Shown here one piece after another: positions 6,696 through 16,998 of a stretch of 24,912 nucleotides of DNA. Each line of letters starts with the position of its first letter. The first letter of the stretch is position 1. Source of the DNA: a virus (lineage: Duplodnaviria; Heunggongvirae; Uroviricota; Caudoviricetes); IMG/VR virus record IMGVR_UViG_2531839583_000011, positions 1 to 24,912 of that record; one strand, written 5' to 3'. Position numbers and translations under genes: made by a program. The notes beneath the pieces are model-generated. The model saw only the letters and a program-made list of their open reading frames with translations. It searched no databases and had not been told where the DNA came from.

Positions 6696-7184
6696 ATGTT
6701 GGATGTATTTACTCCATTGTTGAAACTTTTTGCTAACGAGCCACTCGAAAGACTTATGTATACGATTATCATTTTTGGTCTCACTCTCTGGCTGATACCG
6801 AAAGAGTTTACTGTCGCATTCAATGCTTATACTGAAATACCTTGGCTCTTTCAGATTATCGTTTTTGCCTTTTCTTTCGTGGTCGCCATTTCCTTCTCAA
6901 GATTGCGAGCACATATTCAAAAGCATTATTCATTACTACCAGAGCAACGAGTATTGCTTCGTTTATCTGAGAAAGAAATCGCTGTATTTAAAGATTTCCT
7001 TAAAACAGGAAATCTTATTATCACTTCTCCTTGCCGTAACCCGGTTATGAAAAAATTAGAACGGAAGGGCATCATTCAACATCAGAGGGATAGCGCAAAC
7101 TGTTCTTATTATCTCGTCACCGAAAAATACTCCCATTTTATGAAGTTATTCTGGAACAGCAGGAGTAGACGTTTTAATCGTTAG
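6696..7184 (+). CDS. sieB: SieB superinfection-exclusion membrane protein, 162 aa from MLDVFTPLLKLF
   Basis: Internal ATG at 6696 of ORF 6573-7184; two hydrophobic N-terminal segments; only plus-strand gene in the left early region, as sieB is in Rac/lambda. Confidence 0.82.
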   Translation: MLDVFTPLLKLFANEPLERLMYTIIIFGLTLWLIPKEFTVAFNAYTEIPWLFQIIVFAFSFVVAISFSRLRAHIQKHYSLLPEQRVLLRLSEKEIAVFKDFLKTGNLIITSPCRNPVMKKLERKGIIQHQRDSANCSYYLVTEKYSHFMKLFWNSRSRRFNR

Positions 7185-7336
7185 CTTACTGTGTGCTTCT
7201 CCAACCATCGGCGCGCACCAGTTTCGGTTTTAAATGTTTTGCTTTTGGTATACGTCATGGCAGTGAACGTTCCATCCTGGTTGGAGAACACGCCGCACAC
7301 CAGGGATTCGTTGTTGCCGAGGTCGATTTTTTGCAT
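7181..7336 (-). CDS. ydaF: Small protein YdaF-like, 51 aa (MQKIDLGNNESLVCGVFSNQDGTFTAMTYTKSKTFKTETGARRWLEKHTVS)
   Basis: Hand-translated 51-codon ORF (below track cutoff), convergent with and overlapping the sieB stop; length matches recalled YdaF. Confidence 0.5.
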   Translation of the reverse strand: MQKIDLGNNESLVCGVFSNQDGTFTAMTYTKSKTFKTETGARRWLEKHTVS

Positions 7337-7346
7337 TTTGCGAATC

Positions 7347-7481
7347 TCACATCTTGTTGCTACGTATAGCGACTTCTGCCTGCCAGAGATCCTAGTCGTT
7401 GCTGCGTAAAGCCTGCACAGCCTGGTTGTAAGTGATACCGCAACAATCCATCAAATACTGAACTACTTCGTAATGCACCAT
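7347..7481 (-). pseudogene. ydaG: ydaG-like 44-codon frame interrupted by in-frame TAG at codon 30 (plus-strand cta at 7392-7394)
   Basis: ATG at 7479-7481 with GGAGAG Shine-Dalgarno; frame reads MVHYEVVQYLMDCCGITYNQAVQALRSND then TAG; read-through would add 14 codons to a TGA, giving exactly 44 codons. Confidence 0.4.
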
Positions 7482-7653
7482 CTTATCTCTCCCCTTAACG
7501 CCGGGTGGCGGAACTAACTGCTGCACTGCAAAATTTGAATCCCGCCGTCATGTTCATACGCCTCGGGCTGGCTACTTAACCCCTGACCACTGCCTGGTAA
7601 CTCGAAGTATTGCCCGGCGTTCTGTGGGGCGGGGTGGGTTGGTAGGTATATAA

Positions 7654-7691
7654 TGTACTTTGTGTTCATCATTGTAAAGTACTTTAAGTAC
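7654..7691. promoter_or_regulatory. Putative left operator pair (OL): TGTACTttgTGTTC at 7654-7667 and AGTACTttaAGTAC at 7678-7691
   Basis: Two 14-bp sites with GTACT-N3-(A/T)GT(T/A)C pattern, starts 24 bp apart; same motif and spacing recur in the racR-ydaS intergenic region; a minus-strand TTTACA -35-like hexamer overlaps. Confidence 0.45.
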
Positions 7692-7768
7692 ATTTTATGT
7701 ATAAAAAAATGAGACGGGATAAAGTGAAGCACAAACCCGGAGGGGGACGCTACCGGATTTATGCTGGT

Positions 7769-8188
7769 TTAAGAGGCTTTTTGTTTTTTCTTTCGTGCTA
7801 ACTCTTCGTAAATTGCATTGTACTTCTGTTTTTTCTCCTCAAGAGTTTTTAAAAGTTCATCTGTCTCACTGTCAGGGAGCTCGTCCAGAAGGTCAATGAT
7901 GATTTTTTGTCTTGGATTTAACTCCTGATAGAAACGTATCTGTCCACTTTCTTCTGTATCCTCTCCCAAAAGATAGGTTGGTGTTGTTCCAATGAGTGTT
8001 GCTAATTCCCTTAATTTCTCTCGGCGAGGAATTGTTTCACCATTAAACCATTTGCTAACCGCTTTTGGTGTTAATTTCATTCGACGGGCAATTTCTGCCT
8101 GCCTTCCATGTTGTTCATAACCAGCGTTTTCACAGGCTAGCGCAAGCCTACTGGCGAACTCTTTACGCGCTTTATCTTCATGAACCAT
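7769..8188 (-). CDS. racR: Prophage repressor, XRE-family HTH (cI functional analogue), 139 aa
   Basis: HTH segment QAEIARRMKLTPKAVSKWFNGETIPRREKLRELA; divergent from cro-like gene across an operator-containing intergenic region. Confidence 0.75.
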   Translation of the reverse strand: MVHEDKARKEFASRLALACENAGYEQHGRQAEIARRMKLTPKAVSKWFNGETIPRREKLRELATLIGTTPTYLLGEDTEESGQIRFYQELNPRQKIIIDLLDELPDSETDELLKTLEEKKQKYNAIYEELARKKKQKAS

Positions 8189-8213
8189 AAGTTCAATGAT
8201 ATTCGCTCTTGAA

Positions 8214-8251
8214 TGTACTGTCAGTTCTGTTATAGCATGTACTCAAAGTTC
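8214..8251. promoter_or_regulatory. Putative right operator pair (OR) within divergent PRM/PR region: TGTACTgtcAGTTC at 8214-8227 and TGTACTcaaAGTTC at 8238-8251
   Basis: Two direct copies of TGTACT-N3-AGTTC, starts 24 bp apart, between racR start (8188) and ydaS start (8268); candidate PR -35 TTGAAT at 8209-8214 and -10 TATAGC near 8231-8236. Confidence 0.5.
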
Positions 8252-8267
8252 ACATTGTGAGGATGAT

Positions 8268-8522
8268 ATGAACCAGAAAACACTTGAAGATGTAATCAAA
8301 ACTGTTCGCGTTTCTGTTGTGGCCGACGTTTGTGGTGTCAGCCAAAGAGCAATCTACAAATGGATGGATAACGGAAAATTGCCTCGCACAGAATATACCG
8401 GCGAAACAAATTACGCTGAAAAAATCGCTCATGCATCAAACGGATTATTTTCTGCCGATGCAATTTTAACTATTGGCAGAAATAAAACTACTACGAAAAA
8501 GCTGATGGGAGTTGATTCATGA
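8268..8522 (+). CDS. ydaS: Cro-like/YdaS-like small HTH DNA-binding protein, 84 aa from MNQKTLEDVIK
   Basis: ATG at 8268 preceded by GAGG; HTH segment VADVCGVSQRAIYKWMDNGKLP; stop overlaps ydaT start (ATGA at 8519-8522). Confidence 0.65.
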   Translation: MNQKTLEDVIKTVRVSVVADVCGVSQRAIYKWMDNGKLPRTEYTGETNYAEKIAHASNGLFSADAILTIGRNKTTTKKLMGVDS

Positions 8523-8941
8523 AAATCAAGCATGAGCACATCGAATCAGTGTTGTTAGCCCTGGCAGCCGAAAAAGGGCAGGCGTGGGTCGCTAACGCAA
8601 TTACTGAAGAATATCTGCGCCAGGGGGGCGGCGAATTGCCCCTGGTACCAGGCAAGGACTGGAACAATCAGCAGAATATCTATCATCGTTGGTTGAAAGG
8701 TGAAACGAATGCGCAAAGGGAAAAAATTCAGAAACTGATCCCTGCGGTTCTGGCAATTCTTCCTCGCGAGCTGCGTCACCGACTCTGCATCTTCGATACC
8801 CTGGAACGCCGTGCATTACTGGCGGCACAGGATGCACTGAGTACGGCAATTGATGCGCATGATGATGCAGTCCAGGCCGTTTACCGTAAAGCACATTTCA
8901 GCGGCGGCGGTTCTCCTAGCGATTCTGTCGTAGTGCATTGA
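8519..8941 (+). CDS. ydaT: YdaT, 140 aa (MKIKHEHIESVLLALAAEKGQAWV)
   Basis: Sequence and length match recalled Rac YdaT; position right of the cro-like gene. Confidence 0.85.
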   Translation: MKIKHEHIESVLLALAAEKGQAWVANAITEEYLRQGGGELPLVPGKDWNNQQNIYHRWLKGETNAQREKIQKLIPAVLAILPRELRHRLCIFDTLERRALLAAQDALSTAIDAHDDAVQAVYRKAHFSGGGSPSDSVVVH

Positions 8942-12010: not shown

Positions 12011-12457
12011 TCATTTGTAAAAATCAAAAAATTCTTGGCAGTAGATACCAGATAACGCCAAATATACCAGGACGGCAACGTCTGGTTTTGGTCCTCTTTT
12101 TATCTCATCCAAATCTTTGTTTGTGCAGGAACGCATGGTGTCCCTGATATTCGTATCGTTAGTTAACGATTCGCTGACCGCCAGCACTACTGCTCTCTCA
12201 GTATGACTGAGAGCATTACTGGCTGAAATAATTCGCCCATAGAGTGCGGGATGTGGGGTATTATTACTTTCCGCTATCGCTTGCTGAACACGTTCCTCCT
12301 CTACTGGCATAAGGCGACTGATGAGATCGCTGAGCAAATCTTGCTTTGACTTATGATCGTACATTACCGTTGCCTTACTGACGCCAGCCTCTTTTGCAAC
12401 GTCATCGATTGAAAGTCCAACTGCACCTTCCCGAAGAACAACCCTTTCGCGTTTCAT
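12011..12457 (-). CDS. TetR/AcrR-family transcriptional regulator, 148 aa from MKRERVVLREGAVGLSIDDVAKEAGVSKATVMYDHKSKQDLL
   Basis: Canonical TetR N-terminal HTH signature; divergent from the three-gene operon; internal ATG at 12455-12457 chosen because the HTH begins just after it. Confidence 0.75.
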   Translation of the reverse strand: MKRERVVLREGAVGLSIDDVAKEAGVSKATVMYDHKSKQDLLSDLISRLMPVEEERVQQAIAESNNTPHPALYGRIISASNALSHTERAVVLAVSESLTNDTNIRDTMRSCTNKDLDEIKRGPKPDVAVLVYLALSGIYCQEFFDFYK

Positions 12458-12758
12458 CGTTTCACCGGGTGAGGTCGTGCCAGCGCCGTCGCATCCAACA
12501 TCATGCGGGCAGCAGCAGATCCCATGGATGCGAATAAAAACCATTATAACCTATTGATTATTATTTTTAAATTTTAATCCAGTGCTAGATTTCTGCTTAT
12601 CCCTAGGAACTAAATCATGGAGGTCGAGATTGCCTCCAGATCCTTTTGAGTAAGTGTGCATTTTGTACATGAGGGTTTAGTCAACAAGGTCTTTATTTTG
12701 GATTAATCCTATGGTAAAAAAGAGAAAATTAAGAGTTTGGATATATAAGGTAATTAAA

Positions 12759-15084
<2,326 letters not shown>

Positions 15085-15339
15085 ATAGGATTGTGTAATT
15101 TTACACCCAAATGGACATTTGTAGATTTAGATTTTGTAACTTGAAAATTAAATCATAGCATGGAACTACATAGAAATTATCTTAAGTAACTCCGCGAAGC
15201 GGAGCTACTTACTTCGACGTGGTCAATGTGTGGGCATGACCAGAAATAAATCCTTTTATTTCATTATGTGGAAGCGGTTTCAAAATCTCCATCGGGAGCT
15301 TTTTTGTTAGCATTGATATCTATTAACCAGAATGTTCCT

Positions 15340-15363
15340 GTCCGCTTTTCGCTCAAAGCGGAC
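15340..15363. other. Perfect hairpin GTCCGCTTT-tcgctc-AAAGCGGAC in noncoding region downstream of the operon
   Basis: 9-bp inverted repeat read directly; no flanking U-tract; function unknown. Confidence 0.4.
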
Positions 15364-15846
15364 TAGAAGGTTAGCTTGCGTCGGACTTGGCGTATTTAAA
15401 GAAGTGCTGGTGGTGACTGGTTGTTGTGTTCCATTTCTACAGAATAAAATCACAGAAACTATACCCAATAGTTGTATTGAATCACTGACGAGACAGCCTC
15501 ATATTTATCAGGACTGGTGTGCGTCTAATACAGGGGGTTGTCGTGCTGGTTCTCAAATGTGCGCTGGCTATTGCGGCTGTAATGGCAATTTATTGTCTTG
15601 CTGTTGTTCTTATGGAGCGGCTTTCTGATTGATTACATACTGGCTAGAAAAAAGGTGTTACCTTGGTTTATCTTTGTCCGGCAAGGTGCGCTCATTAATC
15701 TTAAGTAAATTTATTGCTCAAGTATTCAGATTACTTCTTATGGTTGAAGTCTCCTGTCAATGTAGAACCAATATATTTACAAAAATGAGACCCGTCGGGG
15801 ATAGCCCTGCCGGGTCTGACTGTTAAAGCATTTTTAATATGATCAT

Positions 15847-16185: not shown

Positions 16186-16998
16186 AACCACCTCCTCAAA
16201 AACATGCATTATAAATGCGTGTTTTTGAGGGTTATGTCAAGCTGTTATGAAACACATAATTGATATGTTGATTAGAGGAGAAGATATAATAAATATGGTT
16301 GTTTTTCGTATAACTATTTGTTTTACTTTTAGTTTATGCATTCTGCGTGTTAGGAATAAGTTATTAAAGTTTAATCAAAAAATCTCGATGTAGTCCACAT
16401 AGATTATTGTTACTGAACCTTATTGTGTGTATTAGTTGTGTTCTGAAATTTCAGCTTAATTATTTATGATGTATTTTTTAACGATAAATATTTTCCCAGG
16501 ATACCTTTACTGTGTATATAAATAAATTATATACACATAAATAATGTAAAGGCGTCCTTTTAGATATATCTTATCAAATGTTAATGACTTGAGTGGGAAA
16601 TATGATTCCAGCAACTTATCATGTGGCTACTTTATAAAAATAATGCCCATATAAAACAACAAGCGAAAAGGATTACGGATAAAAAAGGAGCGAGATGTGC
16701 GAACTTGTTATTTTCCATGTTTAACCACCTTAAATAATTGATGATGACGGGATGATTGCATCTGTAATGCTTTTATTGAAATGTTATGATAAAAAAGAAC
16801 TTTTGCATAACATTAAAATGTAATTTATCTAATCGTTTTTAATAATAAATGTCGTATTTCTATCCTTGTACCAGCTATTTGATATGTAGTGTTTGTTCAT
16901 GCTATGTGGGGCTTTACACCATAGCCAGTTTATTTATACTTTATTCGTCAGCCTGAACAACTGGCATCTGCTGCGCTGCGCCATCGAGAGATTGAGAA

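Follow-up and report, generated by a model that had tools for sequence, protein, structure and literature searches.

The window, by which we mean the whole 24,912-bp stretch of DNA analyzed here, contains five 15-bp palindromes that are very probably the operators of an HK022/933W-type lambdoid immunity switch in a variant of the Rac prophage. This reading is drawn from the sequence and uses site statistics, conservation, the homology of both regulatory proteins, and the identity of the motif with footprinted operators. The preliminary description of this DNA had taken two clusters of sites for OL and OR bound by a single repressor, named that repressor RacR, and called the switch poorly characterized. 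The assignment to OL and OR agrees well with a lambdoid switch, as the clusters keep register with those of relatives, overlap the predicted PL and PR/PRM promoters, and are avoided by substitutions, but the gene between them is not racR. The type of switch is also known, as HK022 and 933W share its operator code and layout and have both been studied experimentally (PMC3317979, PMC5977221, PMC8053113). Because the repressor is related to HK022 and 933W repressors of known operator code, this is an ordinary, well-understood kind of element.

We aligned the window with the Rac prophage of E. coli K-12. The two are near-identical up to position 7639 and again from about 8512, and they are unrelated in between. 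This places the swap junctions at about 7639/7640 and 8511/8512 and makes the window a Rac prophage with an immunity cassette of ~870 bp that differs from that of K-12. Both operator clusters lie just inside the swapped block, with 15 bp between the left junction and the start of the left pair. Lambdoid immunity regions classically behave in this way, exchanging OL, repressor, OR, and cro as a single block. In a megablast search, K-12 records matched the flanks of the query only, at 33% coverage. A 100%-identical stretch in E. coli FDAARGOS_1249 adjoins ttcA, with intR, xisR, ralR, recT, recE, racC, ydaE, kilR, sieB, and ydaF on its left side and ydaT, ydaV, and later genes on its right. The cassette is present at a coverage of at least 80% in 1047 of 5426 complete E. 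coli genomes (~19%), and O157:H7 strain 86-24 carries it with identical proteins. A literature search for this specific cassette found no experimental study. See Table 1 for the coordinates of all features.

Operator sites and promoter layout

The preliminary description had listed four 14-bp sites, two on each side of the repressor gene. Reading the sequence directly bore out their coordinates, as well as the start-to-start distance of exactly 24 bp in both the left and the right pair. The pattern that they share, WGTACTNNNWGTWC, is not random, with five exact matches in the 24,912-bp window against 0.08 expected from 100 dinucleotide shuffles, none of which contained five matches. Four of them are the listed sites, and the fifth is the perfect palindrome at 7679-7691 read on the reverse strand. 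With one mismatch permitted, the right-hand sites also matched on their reverse strands, and the sole other addition was an unrelated site at 16885. The site itself is a palindrome with a 13-bp core (15 bp in full), G(T/A)AC-N5-GT(T/A)C, which occurs five times across the window and always within the two clusters. The motif search for further copies, proposed earlier as a check, yielded one extra site, GAACCATAAGTTC at 8182-8194. The description of two sites on each side is therefore right for the left pair, but not for the right-hand cluster, where OR comprises three sites with OR3 lying over the repressor ATG.

We then scored the window with a weight matrix built from 26 sites of five relatives, using none of the window's own sites. 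The five positions scored 12.0-20.2 bits, compared with 12.3-20.5 bits for the training sites, and the next best position in the window reached 7.9 bits. Simulated 24.9-kb sequences gave 0.37 hits per window at 12.0 bits or more. The highest score in the window, 20.2 bits, belongs to the site that was absent from the earlier list (8181-8195). By this measure, all five sites belong with the 15-bp palindromes of the HK022/933W type, xG(A/T)AC(T/C)-N3-(A/G)GT(A/T)Cx.

Table 1. Features of the immunity region, in window coordinates
Feature	Position	Strand	Sequence or elements	Basis and remarks
First leftward genes downstream of PL	7181..7526	-	ydaG-like 44-aa ORF (7392-7526); ydaF/DUF1391 (7181-7336)	
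Immunity cassette replacing the K-12 racR-ydaS cassette	7640..8511			Alignment with K-12 Rac; holds both operator clusters, repressor gene, and cro-like gene
PL-like promoter, predicted	7650..7678	-	-35 TTTACA (7678-7673), 17 bp, -10 CATTAT (7655-7650)	Consensus scan
Left site 1	7654-7667		TGTACTTTGTGTTC	Read directly from sequence
OL1, promoter-proximal left operator	7654..7668		TGAACACAAAGTACA on - strand	Matrix 12.0 bits, weakest match
Left site 2	7678-7691		AGTACTTTAAGTAC	Read directly from sequence
OL2	7678..7692		GTACTTTAAGTAC, perfect 13-bp palindrome	Matrix 16.8 bits
Hairpin, possible terminator of repressor transcript	7729..7765	-		RNA fold -20.5 kcal/mol, z = -3.65 versus shuffles
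Repressor gene, 139 aa, WP_000233319.1	7769..8188	-		HK022/933W-CI-like HTH domain (residues 1 to about 76), flexible linker, short DicA-like helical C-terminal part
OR3	8181..8195		TGAACTTATGGTTCA on - strand	Matrix 20.2 bits; identical to HK022 OR3; covers repressor ATG at 8188
PRM-like promoter, predicted	8196..8224	-	-35 CTGACA (8224-8219), 17 bp, -10 TATCAT (8201-8196)	Consensus scan, 10/12
PR-like promoter, predicted, for cro-ydaT	8209..8238	+	-35 TTGAAT (8209-8214), 18 bp, -10 TAGCAT (8233-8238)	Register with HK022
Right site 1	8214-8227		TGTACTGTCAGTTC	Read directly from sequence
OR2	8214..8228			Matrix 16.0 bits
Right site 2	8238-8251		TGTACTCAAAGTTC	Read directly from sequence
OR1	8238..8252			Matrix 17.1 bits; over predicted PR start site (near 8245)
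Cro-like gene, 84 aa, WP_001072342.1	8268..8522	+		Homology search
YdaT-box	8512..8529		TTGATTCATGAAAATCAA, perfect inverted repeat TTGATT-N6-AATCAA	Spans ydaT ATG at right-hand cassette junction
ydaT, CII-analogue regulator	8519..8941	+		94% identity to K-12 YdaT; outside swapped cassette

The predicted leftward promoter is embedded in OL. Its -35 lies between OL2, which abuts it, and OL1, the end of which overlaps the -10. It points toward the ydaG-like and ydaF genes, then kilR, racC, and recET, and its TTTACA is found in register in HK022, Kp4864-1, Omnitron, and the Salmonella relatives. OL1 aligns with OL1 of HK022, Kp4864-1, and Omnitron and has a rare A at half-site position 6. This base is disfavored in 933W assays (PMC3317979), which counts against the operator reading. 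On the other side of the repressor gene, the predicted PRM has its -35 inside OR2, a geometry seen in all nine cassettes that we compared. The repressor mRNA is predicted to be leaderless because just 7 nt separate the PRM -10 from the ATG; leaderless repressor mRNAs have been reported for lambda cI, paaR2, and racR (PMC8630535, PMC9638921). The PR-like promoter matches the consensus weakly (8/12), gave no call in the consensus scan, and was placed by register with HK022, where PR is TTGACT-18-TAATAT compared with TTGAAT-18-TAGCAT in the window. The poor consensus match of this -10 is among the points counted against our main reading. Directly 3' of the repressor stop codon is a hairpin followed by a U-rich stretch that may end the repressor transcript, while a simple terminator scan between the repressor gene and OL gave no call.

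Next, we compared nine cassettes: that of the window, an E. coli variant at 89% identity, two Salmonella short forms, HK022, Kp4864-1, Omnitron, a 933W-type phage, and Salmonella phage SF6. OR1 and OR2 are spaced by 24 bp in all nine, and so are the two OL sites; the repressor ATG is covered by OR3 in every case. The spacing of OR2 and OR3 is 33 bp in seven cassettes and 32 bp in two. The window, in which a tripartite OR and a bipartite OL flank the repressor gene, has spacings of 24, 33, and 24 bp (OR1-OR2, OR2-OR3, and the OL pair), and its clusters align in register with OL and OR of HK022, the 933W-type phage, and three other phages. OR3 and OL2 are separated by 494 to 3049 bp, according to what occupies the interval: the window has nothing there, Salmonella has a HigB-type toxin-antitoxin pair, and the 933W-type phages have stk. 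Within the half-sites, positions 4 and 5 (A and C) are invariant (90/90) and G occupies position 2 in 88/90; the central base is always A/T, and the three spacer positions around the operator center are variable. A mutational study of 933W found the conserved positions to be the important ones (PMC3317979). The 89% variant departs from the window at 2 of 75 operator positions, compared with 22 of 109 flanking non-coding positions (Fisher p = 3e-4), and both operator differences fall at the uninformative positions 7 and 9 of OL1. Including a stretch that is probably misaligned, the flanking count becomes 40 of 132 (p = 4e-7).

The motif G(T/A)ACT-N3-(A/G)GT(T/A)C is the experimentally defined operator of the HK022/933W family. 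For 933W-type phages, we used GQ499361.1, a GenBank record of an immunity region with depositor-annotated operators; facts on the HK022 operators were drawn from the HK022 genome sequence and PMC8053113. The annotated OR1 cGTACTttcAGTACg, OR2 tGAACTgaaAGTTTt, OR3 cGTACTcatGGTTCa (over the cI ATG), OL2 cGTACCaatAGTTCt, and OL1 cGAACTattGGTTCa have the same motif as the window's sites. So do the HK022 sites, which read GAACTtatGGTTC, GAACTgatAGTAC, and GAACTtatGGTTC at OR and GTACTattGGTAC and GAACTttaAGTAC at OL, and HK022 OR3, GAACTTATGGTTC, is identical to OR3 of the window. HK022 also has the OR spacing of 24 and 33 bp, the 24-bp OL pair, the TTTACA of PL between the OL sites, and a PRM geometry that predicts a leaderless repressor mRNA. 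However, HK022 has an extra site downstream of cro, GTACTAAAAGTAC (2165-2177 of the HK022 sequence), as well as a reported OL3. The window has neither, as the matrix found no further operator of either kind and the best remaining score was 7.9. The gene after cro also differs, being ydaT in the window and a lambda-type cII in HK022. The likeness to 933W comprises the 15-bp operator with G2, A/T3, A4, C5, T/C6, and a central A/T, three OR sites but only two OL sites, and OR3 over the cI start; its OR2-OR3 distance is 32 bp rather than 33.

Repressor, Cro-like protein, and YdaT

The DNA-binding domain of the repressor is homologous to that of the HK022 and 933W CI proteins. A translated search of phage genomes gave 46% identity to HK022 CI over 99 residues (E = 9e-32). 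Identity is 63% to CI of Klebsiella phage Kp4864-1 and 71% over residues 1-76 to CI of Citrobacter phage Omnitron, but only 51% over residues 1-73 to CI of a 933W-type Stx phage. The recognition helix, PKAVSKWFNGE, is identical in Kp4864-1 and Omnitron and differs by a single V/I change in HK022. Residues K42 and K46, which set the specificity of the 933W repressor as determined by mutagenesis (PMC3317979), are invariant in our alignment. S41 of 933W is replaced by P in the window repressor and the HK022-like group in general.

The homology to CI proteins stops near residue 76-80. In all full-length relatives, the next ~160 residues form an S24 LexA-like domain (PF00717), which is missing from the short forms. 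HK022 CI, at 235 aa, has such a cleavable domain, as does 933W CI, where the 139-aa window repressor has a short helical tail. A Pfam search of the repressor returned an HTH_3 domain only, with no match to PF00717. In the AlphaFold2 model (mean pLDDT 82.6), five helices form the DNA-binding domain, residues 77-86 are a disordered linker, and two further helices span 92-103 and 106-138. A Foldseek search of the PDB with this model gave generic helix-turn-helix matches only, none at E ≤0.001, and the full-length likeness to SinR, EspR, and an arbitrium-phage repressor was too weak to identify the tail by structure. By sequence, the only PDB match was a marginal one to the N-terminal domain of P22 C2. 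The NCBIfam DicA profile NF007257 aligns over residues 29-137, including the C-terminal helices, but at 56.4 bits, far under the curated cut-off of 101. Because the profile aligns at such a score, we describe the tail architecture as DicA-like and reject membership of the repressor in the DicA family. DicA, the repressor of the Qin prophage, does match in length and overall architecture.

Short-form relatives include 139-aa variants at 87-89% identity in E. coli and metagenomes, as well as 138-aa and 151-aa forms in Salmonella at 62-65% identity. The short form is thus a real family and no truncation artifact. The short DicA-like helical tail that replaces the RecA-cleavable domain is the sole unusual feature of the switch. 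We also searched the window for a LexA box, a possible route to induction without a cleavable repressor, and found none. As the repressor also has no S24 domain, we do not expect induction to be mediated by RecA.

The Cro-like protein shares 59% identity with HK022 Cro, compared with 44% for the 933W-type Cro, which is of another subgroup. Its gene runs divergently from the repressor gene through OR, with promoters assigned by consensus and register only. Further downstream, the YdaT-box has been footprinted in CP-933P (PMC9986795) and, with one mismatch, in K-12 Rac (PMC11879457). The PaaR2-YdaS-YdaT system of CP-933P (PMC8630535), a cryptic prophage of E. coli, is also built like the lambda switch. 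Its repressor is short, has no S24 domain, and comes from a leaderless mRNA; both OR and OL are present, and YdaT is the CII analogue. The system differs in its operators, which are GTTTAGTAA-type repeats, and the window lacks the toxin-antitoxin pair. Salmonella relatives of the window repressor do have a toxin-antitoxin pair downstream of the repressor, a CP-933P-type likeness.

Expected regulation and competing explanations

Repressor binding, promoter activity, the order of occupancy, cooperativity, and OL-OR looping are what we infer, rather than show, for this switch. Dimers of the 139-aa repressor would read the G(T/A)AC half-sites through the recognition helix common to the HK022/933W family. 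Bound at OR1 and OR2, the repressor would turn off the rightward promoter for cro-ydaT and the replication genes, and at OL1 and OL2, it would turn off the leftward promoter for ydaG/ydaF, kilR, racC, and recET. OR3, lying on the start of the leaderless repressor message, would provide negative autoregulation. The Cro homolog is expected to bind the same sites, and YdaT would act at its own box at 8512-8529.

How the repressor occupies paired sites is less easily predicted. In HK022 and lambda CI, the S24 domain mediates dimerization and cooperativity. Because the C-terminal part of the window repressor is unrelated to that domain, its oligomeric state, cooperativity, and looping cannot be transferred from HK022 or lambda CI. 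OL and OR of the window are about 560 bp apart. Lambda OR1 and OR2 are likewise spaced by 24 bp. By itself, the 24-bp phasing noted in the preliminary description is no proof of cooperative binding: the sites are spaced alike in 933W, where OL likewise comprises just two of them, and the 933W repressor is reported to show no cooperativity at OR1 and OR2 (PMC5977221). The spacing is a family trait and does not point to a particular mode of action.

The short repressor might accordingly behave like that of 933W and bind each site independently, with no pairwise cooperativity, no OL-OR loop, and a spacing that is merely inherited. Besides the 933W precedent, the missing domain that mediates cooperativity in CI proteins and an AlphaFold2 model with only two C-terminal helices past a disordered linker speak for this. 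We nevertheless consider independent binding unlikely, while giving it real weight. All four short-form cassettes preserve the spacing without exception despite protein identities of 62-89%, and HK022, the nearer relative by its recognition helix and Cro, has a CI that binds with high cooperativity and forms an OL-OR loop (PMC8053113). Furthermore, short helical tails can tetramerize, as in the SinR-like architecture, although the structural likeness is weak here.

A second alternative is that the sites are relics of a functional phage ancestor and have fallen out of use as the cryptic prophage decays. Defects are common in Rac prophages, one host of the identical cassette has an IS5 in ydaU, and the PR -10 appears degraded (TAGCAT compared with TAATAT in HK022 and TATGTT in a close relative). 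This explanation is very unlikely, as the repressor and cro ORFs are intact and at least 95% identical in more than 1000 genomes, and substitutions avoid the operator positions. The cassette also adjoins ydaT and kilR, toxic genes that K-12 must keep repressed (PMC5700373), and a functional repressor-operator pair should therefore be under selection.

The RacR reading of the preliminary description, with the sites as operators of the K-12 Rac repressor, is extremely improbable. The gene does sit where racR would be in a Rac prophage, with ydaF/ydaG on one side and ydaT on the other, and the resemblance to K-12 Rac (PMC5700373, PMC9638921, PMC11879457) extends to the prophage itself, its insertion site (ttcA), the flanking genes, and YdaT with its box. 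In both, moreover, an operator covers the repressor ATG, the promoters diverge, and a pair of sites lies left of the repressor gene. However, the repressor and Cro-like proteins are unrelated beyond the HTH: identity is 36% to RacR over just 33 HTH residues, and 33% to YdaS over 18 aa. The operator code differs as well. K-12 RacR binds the footprinted motif TAGGC-N3-GCCTA (PMC9638921), which is absent from the window; with two mismatches allowed, (T/A)TAGGC-N3-GCCTA(T/A) gave 2 matches against 6.8 expected, none of them intergenic. K-12 has six such sites, at 2461 (over the racR ATG), 2497, 2522, and 2548 of the K-12 Rac locus sequence, with a further pair 25 bp apart at 1856 and 1881, left of racR; those on the right have been published (PMC9638921, PMC11879457). 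In turn, the K-12 locus has no GTAC-type site, and the best matrix score there is 7.6. The protein comparison and the absence of RacR-type operators rule out that the gene is racR.

That a GTAC-rich motif clustered by chance in AT-rich intergenic DNA, as the shortness of the sites and a pattern chosen after they had been seen might suggest, has next to no probability given the excess of matches, a matrix from other phages that independently picks the same five sites and nothing else, and a layout identical across nine cassettes.

Meaning for Rac prophages

Read as an HK022/933W-type switch, the cassette corrects what is likely a habit of mis-annotation, that of calling every Rac prophage repressor "racR." About 19% of complete E. 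coli genomes, O157:H7 included, carry an HK022-type cassette instead of that of K-12, and conclusions on K-12 RacR concerning operators, C-protein cross-talk, and essentiality cannot be transferred to these strains. The second outcome is a predicted operator map with five sites, three promoters, and the YdaT-box. Apart from these two points, the architecture is textbook lambdoid.

We tentatively suggest, as a possibility short of an even chance, that the repressor is a natural domain swap in which an HK022-type DNA-reading head was joined to a DicA-like, non-cleavable helical tail. If true, the Rac prophage of about one-fifth of E. coli strains, including O157:H7, would share the immunity specificity of HK022-type phages while being insensitive to RecA-mediated cleavage, so that kilR and ydaT would stay silent through the SOS response. 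Any induction would then run via an antirepressor or the Cro/YdaT circuit. The operator map predicts cross-immunity with HK022-type phages, and such a prophage could shield its host from superinfecting phages of HK022 immunity.

Sites at the cassette junction and left of racR

The swapped immunity cassette has a perfect YdaT-box, TTGATTCATGAAAATCAA, exactly at its right-hand junction (see the feature table below for coordinates). In CP-933P, the YdaT site footprinted there is the same as this box; K-12 Rac has ATGATT... at the equivalent position. We also found, in K-12 Rac, two RacR-type sites, TAGGTAATGCCTA and TAGGCTATGCCTA, in the stretch from the ydaG-like gene to racR, at a spacing of 25 bp. 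The two form an OL-like pair for K-12 RacR. The papers on RacR operators, as far as they are searchable, describe sites in the racR-ydaS intergenic region only, and ydaG is not mentioned.

NZ_CP026085.1 (nucleotide match H65), a 4.83 Mb record labelled E. coli DH5alpha, contains the HK022-type cassette at 99.9% identity, whereas the other K-12-derived records in the initial search (ER2796, nucleotide match H8) have the K-12-type racR cassette at this place; NZ_CP026085.1 may be wrongly labelled or wrongly assembled. The protein match P0013 (E. coli, 123 aa) has a Cro-like N-terminus (…RAIYKWMDNGKLPRTEY) fused to the repressor from approximately residue 50 onward and is probably a chimera across the divergent genes, produced by assembly or recombination.

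Features located in the window and in related loci
Feature	Location	Description
YdaT-box TTGATTCATGAAAATCAA	window 8512-8529	perfect; over ydaT start codon
RacR-type sites TAGGTAATGCCTA and TAGGCTATGCCTA	K-12 Rac locus (L001) 1856-1868 and 1881-1893	left of racR
HigB-toxin/HTH-antitoxin pair	L010 3553-4220; L011 3588-4255	Salmonella enterica short-form relatives
Cargo cluster	window 12011-15084	inside prophage; divergent TetR-family regulator gene, then three closely packed genes
Cargo gene 1 of three		adenosine-deaminase-family protein, 342 aa; top PADLOC match, deaminase part of CARF_ADA (1e-35)
Cargo gene 2 of three		Ham1/RdgB ITPase-like protein, 184 aa
Cargo gene 3 of three		SIR2_2 protein, 264 aa; ThsA-like SIR2 (9e-32)

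Promoter PR and the hairpin behind the repressor gene

The predicted -10 element of PR (window 8233-8238) reads TAGCAT, and its equivalent in the E. coli variant of the cassette at 89% identity is TATGTT; HK022 and the other phages compared, in contrast, have TAATAT or similar. Furthermore, four substitutions separate the window from the 89% variant in the OR1-OR2 interval, the highest density within the OR region. Read together, these differences suggest that the lytic promoter PR may be attenuated in resident Rac prophages. Directly 3' of the repressor stop codon, a hairpin (7729-7765, minus strand; -20.5 kcal/mol, z = -3.65) is a possible terminator that would set the repressor transcript apart from PL; a simple terminator scan did not call it.

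Accessory genes in Rac and in the Salmonella short-form relatives

In both Salmonella enterica relatives, the HigB-toxin/HTH-antitoxin pair is placed between OL and the repressor gene, and the OL pair is merely shifted, to ~1.3 kb from OR. The place of the toxin-antitoxin pair is occupied by paaA2-parE2 in CP-933P and matches that of rexAB in lambda.

Within the window, the cluster of deaminase, ITPase, and SIR2 genes appears to be a candidate module for defence against phages; no complete PADLOC system matched it. E. coli FDAARGOS_1249 has an identical immunity cassette, with an IS5 splitting ydaU and a NACHT-domain protein replacing this cluster after DUF977 (L002, its Rac locus, 13558-15817). 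The Rac region after DUF977 appears to act as a hot spot of cargo variation.
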